64,000 nucleotides of DNA. Source: an uncultured delta proteobacterium (lineage in GTDB: Bacteria > Desulfobacterota > Binatia > UBA9968). Below the pieces are notes generated by a model, which was not told the DNA's origin, did no database searches, and saw nothing but the letters and a program-made list of their open reading frames with translations. The stretch is taken from NCBI GenBank assembly GCA_963760795.1, contig CAVXEP010000012.1, forward strand, positions 1-64,000. Reading direction: 5' to 3'. The position numbers were made by a program, and so were the translations under genes. Every line of letters starts with the position of its first letter. Within the stretch, counting starts at the first letter, position 1. Below, in pieces: positions 9,129 through 15,177 of this stretch.

Positions 9129-10049
9129 CTAACTGACTAGCTCCGGCGATGTGCGCAGCAGCGCGTCGAGACTGAACTGGCGGTTTTCCACCTGCTCACG
9201 CAGGTGGCTCAAATCTTCGCGGTATTTGAACACACAGCCCATGGTATCGATTACCGATTTGTCATCCAATTGTTTACGGTTGAGCGCTATCAGCGCCGAC
9301 GCCCAATCCAAAGTCTCGGCGACGCCGGGGCGCTTGTAGAAATTCATTTCGCGCACCTTTTGCATGAAAGCGCAGATTTGCTGCGCCATCCGGGTTTCGA
9401 CGTCGGGAAACTTGGTGGTGATGATCTCGTATTCCTTGTCGAAGGTCGGGTACTCGATCCAGTGGTATAAGCAGCGCCGTTTCAAAGCGTCGTGGATTTC
9501 CCGCGTGCGGTTGGAGGTGAGAAACACATAGGGCCGATGCTTCGCCGTCACCGTACCCAATTCGGGAATGGTGATCTGGAAATCGGACAAGACTTCCAGC
9601 AGAAACGCCTCGAACTCCATATCGGCGCGGTCGATCTCGTCGATCAACAGCACCGGCGGATTGGCATCCTCGCTTTGAATCGCTTCGAGCAGCGGCCGTT
9701 TGACCAAGTAGTCCTGGGTGAAAATCTCGGTTTCGACTTTCTTTTTATCGCCGCGCTCGATCTCTTCGAGCTTAATGTGAAGCATCTGCTTAGGATAGTT
9801 CCACTCGTAAAGGGCGGTGCTGGCGTCGAGCCCTTCGTAGCACTGCAGGCGGATCAATCGCGCGCCCAGGACTTTGGACAATACCTTGGCGATTTCGGTC
9901 TTACCGACGCCCGCCTCGCCTTCGAGCAGAAGCGGTTTGCCCATAACCAGCGATAAATAGACCACGGTCGCCAGGGAACGGTCGCAGACATACTTTTCCG
10001 TCAGAAGAATTTCTTGAACTTGCTCGATGGTCAGCTGTTTCGGATCCAC
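9129..10049 (-). CDS. CoxD-like MoxR-family AAA+ ATPase
   Basis: 'PLLLEGEAGVGKTE', 'LIRLQCYEGLD...ALYEWNY', 'LLIDEIDRAD', 'LTSNRTREIHDALKRRCLYHWI'. Confidence 0.93.
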   Translation of the reverse strand: MDPKQLTIEQVQEILLTEKYVCDRSLATVVYLSLVMGKPLLLEGEAGVGKTEIAKVLSKVLGARLIRLQCYEGLDASTALYEWNYPKQMLHIKLEEIERGDKKKVETEIFTQDYLVKRPLLEAIQSEDANPPVLLIDEIDRADMEFEAFLLEVLSDFQITIPELGTVTAKHRPYVFLTSNRTREIHDALKRRCLYHWIEYPTFDKEYEIITTKFPDVETRMAQQICAFMQKVREMNFYKRPGVAETLDWASALIALNRKQLDDKSVIDTMGCVFKYREDLSHLREQVENRQFSLDALLRTSPELVS

Positions 10050-10505: not shown

Positions 10506-12294
10506 CTAGTATGCCGCTATATAGGCATCCTTGTACTGGTTTTGAGCCATCAGTGTTCTGCGCAGTTCCGCGGCGTCTTTAAGGCTTTCCAATTGACCTA
10601 CGCGCACGCGGTGCCACACTTTGTAATTTCCATGGGTGACTCTCACGTAGGCGTGGTAACCCAAGCGGCGGAGTTTTTGCGCTAACGATTCAGCCCCGCT
10701 ACTCTCGGCTATTGCCGCTACTTGCACGGTCCATGTCCGTCCGCTGGCCGTGGGCTTTTGCGGCTGCACCGGTTTAACGGCAGCCGCCAGGCGGCGCTGG
10801 CGCCGCTACTGGCACGGCTTGAATAAATGAAAGTACCTGCTCTGGCGGCATCGGCGCGATGCTTGGCTTTGGCTGGGTGTTAGCCGGCACGGCCGGCTGA
10901 TAATTCTGCGCCAGCCATACCGGTTCGGTCGATTGCGGCACAGCCATCGGCGGCATCATCCGGCCTGTAAGTGGATCGTTCGATAGTAAAGTGACATTGC
11001 CAATAAACGCCGGCAACGCGGCGCGCGGCCCAACCGGTGGCGTGGCCGGCTCCGGCTGTCGCTGATCGTACTGGTAATACTGGTTCGGATCCGGTAGCGG
11101 CGGCAGTGGACGCGGCGGCAAGAGTCGCTCGCGGTCCTGCATAAGTCGTTCGAGTTCCGCCCGTACCTTCTCGAGCCCAGCTTTGAAGTCGCTCGTAACG
11201 ATCTTGGCTTCATCGCGATTACGAATCACTCGCGGCGTGATCAACATGATCAGTTCGGTGCGATCGGTGGCGTCATTGGTCGTGCCAAAGAATCGCCCGA
11301 TGACCGGAATGTCCATCAGATAAGGGATGCCCGATCGGCCCTTGCGTTTCAGCTCGCCGATCAAGCCACCGATCACTAAAGTCTCGCCATCTTGAACCAC
11401 TGCCGTGGTTTCCGCGTCTTGAGTGTTGAACGCGGGGAACGTGTCTTGCCCCACCGTGACATCCTCGCCGCGCGCACTGACTTCCGCCTTAATTTGCAAA
11501 TTCACTAATCCTCGTGAATTCACCTGTGGAATGATCGTCAGTATCCGGCCGGTGTTGCGGTACTGAATGGTCGTGGATTGTGACAGAGTGGCTACCGAAC
11601 CCGTTGCCGCCTGAAGAGTCCCGGTTGGGATCGGCTCCTCGCTGCCGACCTGAATTCGCGCCGGCTTGTTGTCGCTGGCAATCACGCTCGGCGACGAAAG
11701 TAGCTTAATGCGCGAATTTGTCGCCGCGGCGCGTGATCATCGCTGACACCGTGTCGTCACCGACGATGGCGCTGAGTCCAGCCGCGCCTAAGAATGCGGG
11801 TGAAGCCGGGAAAAGCGTTCCTAATGTTTTGATTGCCGCGTTTGAACCGAATGTCTGGCCGAAAATCGTTTGACGGGATTTGCGAAACAGCTCGTAATCG
11901 ACGCCGAAGTCTTCGGAATCCCTAAGATCGATCTGCAATATCATCGCTTCGATCAATACCTGCCGTGGAATCGCATCGAGCTCCTTGAGAATATTTTTCA
12001 CGTTCTGATACTCTTGGACGGTACCATAAACGACTAATGAGTTGGTCGCCGGATCGGCGACGATACGCAATTGCTCCTGTTGTTGCTGCTGCTGCCCCGG
12101 TTGAGCTGGAACGGCTGGCCTTGGCACGACGCCGGTGCTGGTGACGGCGTCGTGACCTGGGGAGCTGGCGTCGCTGGAACTGGGACCTGGCCTGGCACAG
12201 GTACGGTCGCGAATGCTCCCGGACGGTTTTGCGCCTGCACACCGGACCAACTTCCGGCGATGACCACTAAACATATCGCAGTAAAATTTTTCAT
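10506..12294 (-). CDS. gspD: Secretin GspD C-terminal part: signal peptide, Pro-rich linker, end of N3, secretin domain, Pro-rich tail, probably fused to a SPOR domain (frameshifted)
   Basis: 'LRIVADPATNSLVVYGT...ILKELDAIPRQVLIEAMI', 'SDNKPARIQVGSEEPI', 'IQYRNTGRILTIIPQVN', 'DGETLVIGGLI...SGIPYLMDIPVIGRFFG...RTELIMLITPRVIR'; SPOR 'WTVQVAA...HRVRVGQL' at 10506..10769; start at MKNFTAICLVVIAGSWSGVQA is an inference. Confidence 0.8.
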
Positions 12295-13584
12295 CGCATT
12301 TGCCCTTGCTGTGAACCACCCGAACCAAACTGTCCTGAGCCACTCGAGCTGCCCGAATCCCCCGGATGGGTTGGAGCTGCCCGAAGAAGACCGATGTATG
12401 CTCTGCAAAGTCTGCGGCGCTGCTGCGCGCGCCGGTGGAAGGTTGGCCCAGCGCCTGGTTGAGCACGTCGGCGAGCTCGGTCGCCTTGCCGTTTTCCACG
12501 GGGTAGATGAATATCCTGCGACCCGGCCCTTCGGCAACCACGTCGATGCGGTCGAGCCACCGTTTAGCGTAGGTCCAAGCCGCTTCGCTATGGGCGATGA
12601 TCAGCAATTGGTTGATTCTTGGCAGCGGTACGAACTGCGCGGCAAAGTTCTCACTCTGGGGCGAGGAGGCCGAGAACGACTGCATGACTTTGGTCATCTC
12701 TTGGGATAGCTCCTCGGCGCTGGCGATTTTCGGCTGATAAATTTCCATGCGCGTACCGGCGAAAACCTGGACGTCGATGAGGTCGACGATCTCGGTTAAC
12801 CGCTGAATATTCAGCGGGGTGTCCATGACGATCAAAAAATTGCCGCGCGGGTTATCGATAATCTCGGCGCCCGGTTGCAAAAATGGCGTCAGCACCCGTT
12901 TCATTTCGGCGACCGTAAAAAACCGTACGGGGATCAGTTGTAAGGCAAAACTATCCTCGCGTCCTTGCGCCAGCGGGCGCGCCATCCCTTTGCCGTCCTT
13001 GATCGGCGTGATGTGATATAGATTGCCGGTGCGCACCGCCACCGCGCCATTCATGCGTAGCAGCTGGTGAAAGATCGGCATCAGATCCTCGGCGCGCAGC
13101 GGCTCAGCGCTATTGATCGTCACCGTGCCTTTGACCTCGGGATCGATCGTGTAGGTCAGCCGCAGTTGCTGGGCGATAATGTGGATAATCTCGACTAGAT
13201 CGGCACGGTTGAAGTTAAGAGAAACCATGCCGCCGGCGGGAAAAGAAGATCCCGGGCTACCGCGCCGGATCGGTGGCCCGGAACCGCCGGCACAGCGGGT
13301 TGAGCGGTATCGTTCGGATCGGCCGGCACCGGTTGCCCCGGCGACGGCGTGACCTGGCCCGGCGCTTGGACTGGCGCAGGTAGGCGCCGCGGCAAAACTG
13401 GCGGCCGCGGCCCTGGCGGTATATTTGGATCTCCAGGAATCTGCGGCTGTGCGGGGTTTGGGCGTGGCTGAGTGGGAGTCGGCGTAGGGATCGGCACCAC
13501 TGGCGGTTGCTGTGACCCTGCCGGGCTGGTAACCGTCGTTGCGAAAATCAGCACAGCCATGCGTGAAACACTTTTTAAAGACAT
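12291..13584 (-). CDS. gspD: Secretin GspD N-terminal part (signal peptide, Pro-rich region, N0-N1-N2, start of N3; frameshifted)
   Basis: AGGAG RBS before ATG 13584; 'VSLNFNRADLVEIIHII...YTIDPEVKGTVTI', 'IFIYPVENGKATELADVLNQALG'; G/S-rich tail ends GSGGSQQGQMR* at 12291. Confidence 0.75.
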
Positions 13585-13603
13585 AGGATCGCTCCTTCTC
13601 CAC

Positions 13604-14278
13604 TCACGACTCGGGGCCGCCACTGCCGGGCACCGGTATCCGTCCCCGTCTTGGCAGGTTGGGCAATACCCTGGGCACCGGCACTGGGTTGCCGGTGGGC
13701 GGCGCCTGAATCTGTCCCGGCGCAGCCGCGGGCCGAGGCGCAACGTTATCGACCTTGCGAAAGTAATCCAGCAATACTTCCACCCGCGTCGCGTCGCGGG
13801 CAAAAACTACCCGCTGGTCGGTGATCTCCGTCAGCCTAAATCCTTCGACATTGTCGCCGACTTTCAAACGCAAAATGGACGCGGCCTGTGCACCGGGTCG
13901 TTGTCCGGCAACCGGCTGGCCGGGTGCCAGGTTGGCGCCATCCTGGACAATCGCCACGCGATTGTTACCGATGATCACAGTGCCCACTAGAATCATGCCA
14001 CGCACACGTTGGACGGCTCGGGAATTTTCTTCCGCATCGCGCGACGCACCCGCTCCCCTTTCAGGATCGAAAAGGTTCTTGCTAATAATCGCTTCGGTAC
14101 CGATCGACGGCCGCGGCGTCAGTAAAAGCTGCTGTTCCGTGCTAATCGCCGCCGGCCTTTGCGCCATAGGTCCGGGAATATCCCAAGGGCCTGCACGCCA
14201 AGAGCGATAGGTCGTCCATCCAACCAAACCGATGGCCACTGTAATAACGATGCTTAATAACGCGGATCGAGTAAGAAT
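13604..14278 (-). CDS. GspC-like T2SS protein (TM anchor plus HR domain)
   Basis: N-terminal TM, 'KNLFDPERG', 'ILVGTVIIGNNRVAIV', 'LKVGDNVEGFRLTEITDQRVVF'; position before gspD; start uncertain. Confidence 0.7.
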   Translation of the reverse strand: MLTRSALLSIVITVAIGLVGWTTYRSWRAGPWDIPGPMAQRPAAISTEQQLLLTPRPSIGTEAIISKNLFDPERGAGASRDAEENSRAVQRVRGMILVGTVIIGNNRVAIVQDGANLAPGQPVAGQRPGAQAASILRLKVGDNVEGFRLTEITDQRVVFARDATRVEVLLDYFRKVDNVAPRPAAAPGQIQAPPTGNPVPVPRVLPNLPRRGRIPVPGSGGPES

Positions 14279-14508: not shown

Positions 14509-15177
14509 CTAGACAGGTTTATCCGGCGCTGCTTTCGTTGGGTTCGACGGCGCTCCCGGCTTCGCCGCAGGCACCGGCTGAGCCCGGGCAAAGCCGACAA
14601 CCGTAAGACTGACTCTAAGGTTTTGTTGGGCCGCCGGTTGTGCCCCGGGGACTTGAGGGAAGCCGACCGGACGGAATAGAGAACGGACGTTGATCTCGTC
14701 GATGACTAAGAGCTTTGGCGCGCTTTCGATCCCGCGAATCAAACTGGCCAGTTGTTGCACCTGGCCGCCGATCTCCATTTGGATGGCGATTTTGGAAAAT
14801 GAGCCGCTCGGCTCGGGATTGAGCACGCGGGTAGTGATGACTTGGGTGCCCTCGCGGGTCGCCAGCAACTGCACCGTCTCCTGGAGATCGGACGCGGTAA
14901 CCGAAGGGGTATCCCCGGTCAACAGCGCCGGTTCGATGGTTTTGATCTGATTCTGTGCCGCAGCCAGGGCCGCCAATAACGAATCTTTCTGGCTCAAGTA
15001 TCGCAGGTTTTTTTGCAGTAATTGTGGCTGGCTTTCGAGTTGGCCCTTAATCGTCGCCCGGCGCTCGAGCAGCGGCGTGGCGATTGCCGTCTTGACGATA
15101 AAGAACAACATGATCGCGCCGGTCAAAAAAACCAGCCCCCGTTCGCGCTGCGACAACCTTTGCCAAAACTGCTTCAT
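14509..15177 (-). CDS. gspM: Type II secretion protein GspM
   Basis: 'WQRLSQRERGLVFL' TM, coiled coil, 'LIRGIESAPKLLVIDEINV'. Confidence 0.8.
   Translation of the reverse strand: MKQFWQRLSQRERGLVFLTGAIMLFFIVKTAIATPLLERRATIKGQLESQPQLLQKNLRYLSQKDSLLAALAAAQNQIKTIEPALLTGDTPSVTASDLQETVQLLATREGTQVITTRVLNPEPSGSFSKIAIQMEIGGQVQQLASLIRGIESAPKLLVIDEINVRSLFRPVGFPQVPGAQPAAQQNLRVSLTVVGFARAQPVPAAKPGAPSNPTKAAPDKPV

Follow-up and report, generated by a model that had tools for sequence, protein, structure and literature searches.

The 64,000-nucleotide stretch analysed here (the window; positions 1 to 64,000 of contig CAVXEP010000012.1, GenBank assembly GCA_963760795.1, from an uncultured member of the Binatia) encodes a type II secretion system (T2SS) secretin, GspD, in two genes. 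This is a genuine, conserved two-gene T2SS secretin of Binatia-like soil bacteria that is blurred in this assembly by insertions and deletions (indels). Its two open reading frames (ORFs), which we call ORF1 and ORF2, are conserved and under purifying selection in many genomes. We consider it likely that GspD underwent a true two-ORF fission inside the loop of its N3 domain and that the halves are exported separately and re-form N3 in the periplasm. We refer to the genome of this assembly as G000 and used its closest relative, G003, as the reference for clean frames.

The secretin gene is on the minus strand. Using a three-frame translation together with the list of ORFs, we found that its recognisable parts switch between frames. 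A signal peptide and a Pro-rich linker begin at ATG 13584, and N0, N1, N2 and the start of N3 follow in the frame 11705..13603, which has Pfam matches to N0 and Secretin_N. One frame then ends in ...GSGQFGSGGSQQGQMR at TGA 12293-12291 (ORF 12291..12560, minus strand). ATG 12294-12292 begins MKNFTAICLVVIAGSWSGVQAQNRPGAF..., which runs on into a Pro-rich stretch (ORF 12034..12537, minus strand). The frame 11705..13603 then resumes with what is left of N3 and the first part of the pore domain, the remaining pore domain is in ORF 10774..11685 (PF00263) and a SPOR domain is recognised by Pfam in ORF 10506..10769. In G003 the same DNA forms two clean ORFs of 439 and 595 amino acids (aa). A preliminary description of this DNA had reported that a TGA at 12293-12291 overlaps a new ATG at 12294 and that the frame 11705..13603 reads through without a stop. 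Both are present, the overlap recurring in the genomes of relatives and the frame being open for 632 aa. The parts of the two genes are as follows.

12291..13584, minus strand: ORF1 as read in relatives, with signal peptide, Pro-rich linker, N0, N1, N2, first N3 beta-alpha unit and Gly/Ser-rich tail; the G003 counterpart is a clean 439 aa.

13510..13584 (end approximate), minus strand: ORF1 signal peptide (MSLKSVSRMAVLIFATTVTSPAGS...), at the same position in G003, G013, G035 and G002.

12443..12520, minus strand: N3a, the first strand and first helix of N3 (RRIFIYPVENGKATELADVLNQALGQ), from the Secretin_N match, invariant columns and the model.

12294..12442, minus strand: Gly/Ser-rich, disordered ORF1 tail, the first half of the N3 loop; the equivalent loop in an unsplit model has a predicted local distance difference test score (pLDDT) of 34-42.

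12291..12294, minus strand: ATGA junction, where the ORF2 ATG 12294-12292 overlaps the ORF1 TGA 12293-12291.

12232..12294, minus strand: ORF2 signal peptide (MKNFTAICLVVIAGSWSGVQA), with predicted cleavage before QNRPGAF.

12071..12231, minus strand: start of mature ORF2 with its Pro-rich, poly-Q linker, which forms the second half of the N3 loop; the frame changes at ~12131.

11960..12070, minus strand: N3b, comprising N3 strands 2 and 3 plus helix 2 (LRIVADPATNSLVVYGTVQEYQNVKNILKELDAIPRQ), from the Secretin_N positions in G003, identity and the model.

11221..11959, minus strand: secretin (pore) domain of ORF2 (PF00263), with a frame change at ~11733.

10506..11220, minus strand: ORF2 C-terminal Pro-rich linker and SPOR, with SPOR at about 10509-10769 and the stop at 10506-10508.

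The domains are those of a GspD. The N0 domain (PF21305) was found at E 2.9e-16 in the 632 aa frame, Secretin_N (PF03958) matched three stretches corresponding to N1-N3, the last one spanning the loop, and the pore domain (PF00263) matched at E 2.2e-40. What sets this protein apart is that it is not one chain: a stop, a new start and a signal peptide interrupt it in 15 genomes. By Pfam, ORF2 of G003 contains only Secretin_N (profile positions 30-65 of 69), Secretin and SPOR. ORF1 in this assembly switches frame at ~13279, ~12415 and ~12347. G003 and further relatives, whether split or unsplit, have SPOR fused to the secretin; the SPOR ORF at 10506-10769 is the true C-terminus of ORF2 and is separate here only through a 1-base insertion at 10789. 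In split and unsplit family members alike, this peptidoglycan-binding domain follows a Pro-rich linker of ~150 residues (window 10506-10789; L014:17496-19283).

At the junction, AAGGG is 8 bases upstream of the ORF2 ATG. Unsplit proteins read ...GSFGQQSQPLGAYAAVPAPGQV... through the loop, whereas split genes at the same place read ...GSGGSQQGQMR, which in the window is the end of the Gly/Ser-rich ORF1 tail at TGA 12293-12291, then a stop, M-K-...-A-Q-A and QNRPGAFATVPVPGQV.... Thus, the difference is an insertion of ~25-35 codons with a stop, a start and a signal peptide, and the position of the cut is exact from the unsplit orthologues. The preliminary description had likened the Pro-rich linker behind the second signal peptide to that of the first gene. 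The linker is there, but it is the second half of the N3 loop and is also found in unsplit relatives. Among the 15 split genomes the junction is an ATGA overlap in ten, a 2-base spacer in one, an in-frame stop in three and a long spacer in one (G065). In the in-frame-stop type, TGA, TAG or TAA is followed by 27 bases containing GGAG and then by ATG (G010, G034, G033). Although unlike one another, all of these junctions yield two translation units.

We determined how widely the split occurs by reading each locus directly; open-frame length was not used for classification, its value for G010 being 1098 despite the in-frame TGA of that genome. The genus set comprised 31 genomes including G000, 25 of which were matched at E <= 1e-40. 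The secretin query was unmatched in the other six of the 31, including G006 and G007, which are 98-99% complete. Of 24 readable genomes in the genus, 12 have a split secretin and the other 12 a single chain, with G039, G037 and G040 readable only with frame changes:

Split, ATGA overlap: G000, G003, G013, G035, G002, G008, G040, G038, G036.

Split, in-frame stop TGA, TAG and TAA, respectively: G010, G034, G033.

Single chain of ~1000 aa: G014, G016, G018, G005, G032, G011, G017, G004, G012, G039, G037, G042.

Unreadable, at a contig end: G041.

Elsewhere in the family, 47 of 59 genomes had a match and 40 loci were read. The split was found at 3 of 39 readable loci, G068 and G069 belonging to one genus and G065 to another, and the other 36 were single-chain. 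The locus of G063 stops before the junction and was left out of the 39; also left out were two loci at contig ends (G055, G070), two with weak partial matches (G077, G082), and G061, G064 and G072. At five outgroup loci, drawn from two further families in the order, the gene was single-chain and SPOR was missing. The adjacent ORF pairs that the preliminary description had proposed to look for in related genomes were found, one with N0-N2 and the start of N3 and the other with a new signal peptide ahead of the remainder of N3 and the secretin domain. Occurrence of the same stop and signal peptide at the same place in 14 other genomes is no matter of chance.

Gene calls made independently by others gave the same picture. 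Using the first 200 residues of G003 ORF2 as a query against 5.8 billion proteins, we obtained 424 matches. Among the best 120 of these, 57 begin like ORF2, 55 are single chains with N0 and 8 are other proteins; the ORF2-like ones are mostly 585-616 aa long and have Secretin_N, Secretin and SPOR without N0. A search with ORF1 residues 240-439 gave 372 matches, and 111 of the best 120 end in the loop 64-84 residues past FIYPV, with six continuing into N3b and three lacking the motif. The halves come from NCBI, JGI, ENA and Logan, and many are named 'Candidatus Binatia bacterium' (~440 and ~590 aa). Their annotations include 'SPOR domain-containing protein', 'cell division protein FtsN', 'DedD', 'general secretion pathway protein D' and 'partial GspD'. 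A profile search over 1.84 billion representatives gave 63312 matches; in the best 150, ORF2-like proteins were confined to the Binatia-type clusters P0041, P0241, P0243, P0244 and P0060 and to P0260 (446 aa, with the second half of Secretin_N only), and most short matches were gene fragments. The profile search also returned giant secretins of 2100-5500 aa (P0374, 4205 aa; P0346, 2149 aa; P0278, P0283, P0299, P0325 and P0353). Two of these that were scanned have 39 and 20 Secretin_N stretches ahead of a single C-terminal pore domain.

The N-terminus of ORF2 has a positive n-region, a hydrophobic core and small residues at -3/-1 in 49 of 49 full-length ORF2-like proteins, as judged by simple rules of our own rather than by a trained predictor. 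Its 10-residue hydrophobic window has a Kyte-Doolittle value of at least 2.06, with a median of 2.90 (n=49). This contrasts with the sequence itself, which is the least constant of the four ORF2 regions compared by mean pairwise identity:

Signal peptide of ORF2: 0.35.

Mature N-terminus of ORF2: 0.64.

N3b: 0.87, the highest of the ORF2 regions.

Pore domain: 0.71.

Such variable sequence with constant physico-chemistry looks like that of a working signal peptide. We also considered a lipoprotein, given the Cys in MKNFTAIC, and rejected this reading as the Cys is absent from most relatives. Searches of the whole G000 genome for a donor of the signal peptide (30 residues by tblastn, 90 bases by blastn) gave chance-level matches only.

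Purifying selection acts on both halves. Across six split-genome pairs the ratio of nonsynonymous to synonymous substitution (dN/dS) was 0.10-0.14 for ORF1 and 0.08-0.19 for ORF2, at dS of 0.6-2.8, the larger dS values being saturated. The N3 halves are the most conserved parts of their respective proteins: among 50 ORF1-like proteins, invariant columns are packed most densely in the N3a stretch R356-G380, and in ORF2 the most conserved part is N3b. The ORF1 and ORF2 profiles tile solved GspD structures, covering residues 8-264 and 285-603 of 5wq7_A and residues 4-261 and 271-598 of 5wq9/5wq8. For the unsplit G016 protein, residues 268-545 were modelled with AlphaFold; the mean pLDDT was 51, and we used the model for secondary structure only. 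In this model N2 is strand-helix-strand-strand-helix, and N3 consists of a strand (99-105), a helix (111-121), ~100 residues at pLDDT 34-42, two strands (224-228, 233-238) and a helix (240-252). The cut is predicted to fall in this low-confidence loop, after helix 1 of N3 and before strand 2, which is where the preliminary description had placed it.

Based on these results, we propose that the GspD gene of a complete T2SS operon was split within the ~100-residue disordered N3 loop, an insert of ~25-35 codons (stop, ribosome-binding region, start and Sec-type signal peptide) coming to lie between the loop halves. ORF1 (signal peptide, N0-N2, and strand 1 and helix 1 of N3) and ORF2 (signal peptide, strands 2-3 and helix 2 of N3, pore domain, linker and SPOR) would be translated together, in most cases coupled by the ATGA overlap. 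Once exported by Sec and cleaved, the two halves would complement each other as fragments and re-form N3 in the periplasm, giving a channel that resembles a one-chain secretin but is made of two kinds of subunit.

The quality of this assembly bears on whether the gene is intact in the strain itself. The gene is 93.9% identical in DNA to that of G003. Relative to G003, the junction region of G000 has +1 at ~12415, -26 at ~12347 and -1 at ~12131, in line with the 'about three' single-base corrections of the preliminary description, and three further indels lie elsewhere in the gene (-1 at ~13279, +1 at ~11733 and +1 at 10789). The -26 indel is one 27-base repeat unit fewer plus one base. This repeat (SSGSGQFGQ-like unit) is in the Gly/Ser-rich loop at ~12320-12400 of the window, and G003 has one copy more (L002). 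The six frame-disrupting indels within ~3 kb, none in a long homopolymer, would fit a decaying pseudogene in G000, with the indels real and the working split gene kept by relatives. The contigs that we obtained from four soil-metagenome runs leave room for this, as they come from relatives (90-99% alike) and not from this strain. No sequencing run was found that holds at least half of the sampled words of this DNA, the best holding 0.35. We nevertheless regard decay as unlikely. Across ~52 kb aligned to G003 the window has 130 indels, of which 120 are frameshifting and 87 of those are extra bases in G000. The secretin is hit at a density like that of its surroundings (6 in ~3.1 kb against 120 in ~52 kb), and indels fall in other genes as well. 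Of the 120 sites, 59 have the longer open frame in G003 and 22 in G000, and at the remaining 39 the two are similar, so noise is present in both assemblies and is greater in G000. Outside the indels, the proper frames contain no stops and the protein is 95-98% identical to that of G003. In four of four runs the relatives' contigs do not have the extra base at 10789, and one of the four runs lacks the base at ~12418, which is the ~12415 indel. Given the higher noise in G000, a gene hit no more than its surroundings and the contigs of relatives, the extra frame breaks and the open read-through frame in this assembly are most likely indel errors. Of the 120 frameshifting indels, 37 fall in the first 4 kb (window 1-53100 against G003:C2:422000-475000), and gene models anywhere in the window call for caution.

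We examined whether the halves associate by predicting the complex of ORF1 residues 270-402 with ORF2 residues 62-362, both entered as alignments of our own making. The score was 0.38 ('weak support') and that of the best of three controls was 0.00; as the alignments were ours and GspD structures have been solved, likeness alone may account for a pass. Of 80 solved complexes, 58 reached the score mark, as did 2 of 110 mismatches; at <=0.60 the mark was reached by only 7 of the 80, together with both mismatches. The runs shared at least 90% of contacts, and pLDDT of the partners was 67 or more. Both proteins might instead be made without rebuilding N3, with ORF2 alone forming the pore and ORF1 acting as an independent periplasmic adaptor or binding elsewhere. 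The score, which is not strong, would allow this, and there are short secretins among solved structures (RcpA, pIV, BfpB). We think it improbable: the N3 beta-alpha unit is the most invariant part of ORF1 and N3b the most conserved part of ORF2, which is hard to explain unless they fold together, and unsplit orthologues have the same sequence at both N3 halves. The complex prediction lends weak support to an N3 rebuilt from two chains, and it is mainly the conservation of both orphan half-domains that suggests binding. As for the heteromeric secretin proposed in the preliminary description, its two conserved ORFs are confirmed, and the rebuilding of N3 is still put forward as a prediction.

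A single chain could also be produced by programmed frameshifting or stop read-through, the 'signal peptide' then being an internal segment. In three genomes the ORFs are in the same frame with one stop between them, and in genomes of the ATGA type no stop interrupts the frame of ORF2 over tens of codons upstream. However, the in-frame stops differ (TGA, TAG, TAA), and the other junctions need another shift or, as with the long spacer of G065, are unbridgeable, so that no single mechanism of recoding suits all of them. The hydrophobic segment also keeps its signal-peptide features in every one of the 49 proteins noted above, and we hold recoding to be very improbable. The remaining reading, that there is no split and the continuous frame 11705..13603 is the true gene, can be set aside with near certainty even though that frame is open here in an indel-prone assembly, as its part from ~12415 to ~12131 is an alternative frame of G+C-rich DNA that in G003 links neither to N0-N2 nor to the pore domain (continuity of this frame being what the preliminary description had named as its refutation), the short-read assemblies G002, G008, G035, G010 and G033 have clean ORF pairs and clean halves are also among the proteins of four public sources.

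Several points weigh against a true fission followed by separate export and re-forming of N3. G003, the reference for clean frames, itself contains indels. Among the indels listed, the relatives' contigs match only two of the six sites (10789 and ~12415), and the gene could be truly decayed in this strain. Cleavage of the ORF2 signal peptide is predicted from simple rules. The split genes also do not form one clade, requiring four state changes in the tree of the ORF1 part and five in that of the pore part. We compared these trees with an approximately unbiased (AU) test of the split genes as one clade, a group chosen after the trees were seen. The ORF1 part did not reject it (p-AU 0.274), and the pore part rejected it strongly (p about 1e-55). 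In the ORF1-part tree G038 and G036 fall with the other ATGA genomes, and in the pore-part tree with the unsplit G014. The start of the pore domain occurs as two sequence types (LIEAMILQ.DL... and LLDV.VAEVTL...), independent of split state (G038, G036, G014, G005; L048, L049, L060, L063). Together, the conflicting part trees and the two types of pore start suggest recombination within the gene. The inserted segments are alike across junction types (...GVQAQNRPGAF, ...GVQWAQKRTKNAY, ...RWAQNRSGGAY, ...ASAQNPPAGGAF), and this related look argues for one origin. A single fission followed by recombination downstream of the junction would fit these sequences best; several fissions or re-fusions would be an alternative history with a poorer fit. 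A further idea is a modular secretin, in which a pore module tied to the cell wall by SPOR and a separately exported vestibule module (N0-N2) dock via completion of N3; the conflict between the part trees (p-AU 0.27 against p about 1e-55) suggests that such modules may be re-assorted between lineages by recombination in the loop. We offer this as a tentative idea that is probably not correct in full.

The secretin genes are part of a gsp operon. In G003 this encodes GspE, GspF, GspG, two further pseudopilins, GspJ, GspK, GspL (PilM/PilN-like), GspM(b), a 214 aa protein, ORF1 and ORF2. The window is syntenic with this region and contains a T2SSM_b gene, the full set being present in G003. Two genes upstream of ORF1 are in the window:

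13604..14239, minus strand: 211 aa protein without a Pfam family, upstream of ORF1.

14509..15177, minus strand: GspM (T2SSM_b by Pfam), in the same operon.

The 211 aa protein occupies the place expected for a GspC-like protein, a role suggested by position alone. Directly downstream of the secretin, in G003 too, are genes for a MoxR-type AAA ATPase, a CoxE-like VWA protein and XdhC-family proteins (window 9129-10049 on; L014:13666-17045), a set typical of molybdenum hydroxylase or CO dehydrogenase maturation. We found a second secretin of ~690 aa elsewhere in five of five genomes tested, split and unsplit alike. That of G000 is unsplit, ~680 aa long and on another contig (G000:C17:115252-115776), with counterparts in G003, G013 and G016; it is probably the type IV pilus secretin PilQ. 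No spare one-chain GspD was found in G000, G003 or G013.

One parallel is the rhizobial-type type III secretion system (T3SS), the secretin of which is encoded by rhcC1 and rhcC2. According to the available excerpts of four papers (PMC3574062, PMC3973906, PMC3459982, PMC4311626), this arrangement is conserved in a clade and its significance is stated to be unknown. As argued in the excerpt of PMC3459982, RhcC2 is a whole, secondarily acquired Tad-type secretin with BON and RhcC1 is a remnant of the old secretin. There, too, a secretin is shared between an N-terminal protein and a pore protein, but in that account it arose by gene replacement and the genes are apart, whereas here they are adjacent pieces of one GspD. 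ORF2 of G003 has no BON match, its context is a T2SS and the best solved matches of the ORF2 profile are T2SS GspD chains, in contrast to a Tad-type pore with BON in a T3SS context. A second parallel is the T2SS of protist mitochondria, in which GspD is described, in the excerpt of PMC8134430 that we consulted, as 'split into multiple parts', namely GspDL and GspDN1-3, with two proteins corresponding to halves of one N domain. As portrayed in that excerpt, the mitochondrial protein is eukaryotic, highly diverged and in several pieces whose correspondence to N1-N3 is unassignable, whereas the protein here is bacterial and has unsplit orthologues that are ~70% identical. The same excerpt regards N3 as needed for pore assembly. 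Our literature searches gave no report of a bacterial T2SS secretin in two genes.

Secretins serve as models of outer-membrane channels, and GspD in general forms such a channel of ~15 subunits and depends on an S domain or a pilotin. Split GspD is a natural split version of this well-studied channel. Because its halves are named FtsN, DedD, SPOR protein or partial GspD by annotation pipelines, T2SS detection that relies on a single gene may miscount such genomes. The single-chain proteins with solved structures (E. coli 5wq7, V. cholerae 5wq8/5wq9, 6i1x, PulD 6hcg, XcpQ 5wln) have the same order of N0-N1-N2-N3-secretin; the gspE-F-G-J-K-L-M context is also the same, and unsplit orthologues occur within the same genus. 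In contrast to those proteins, the one described here consists of two polypeptides, with the cut lying after helix 1 and before strand 2 of N3, and has a second signal peptide, an N3 loop of ~100 residues, a Pro-rich linker of ~100 residues past the first signal peptide and a C-terminal SPOR. A natural, conserved cut in N3 alongside one-chain orthologues of ~70% identity in the genus provides a ready comparison, which bears on whether the periplasmic vestibule must be covalently joined to the pore, on how the halves meet after export and on how a signal peptide arises inside a gene.

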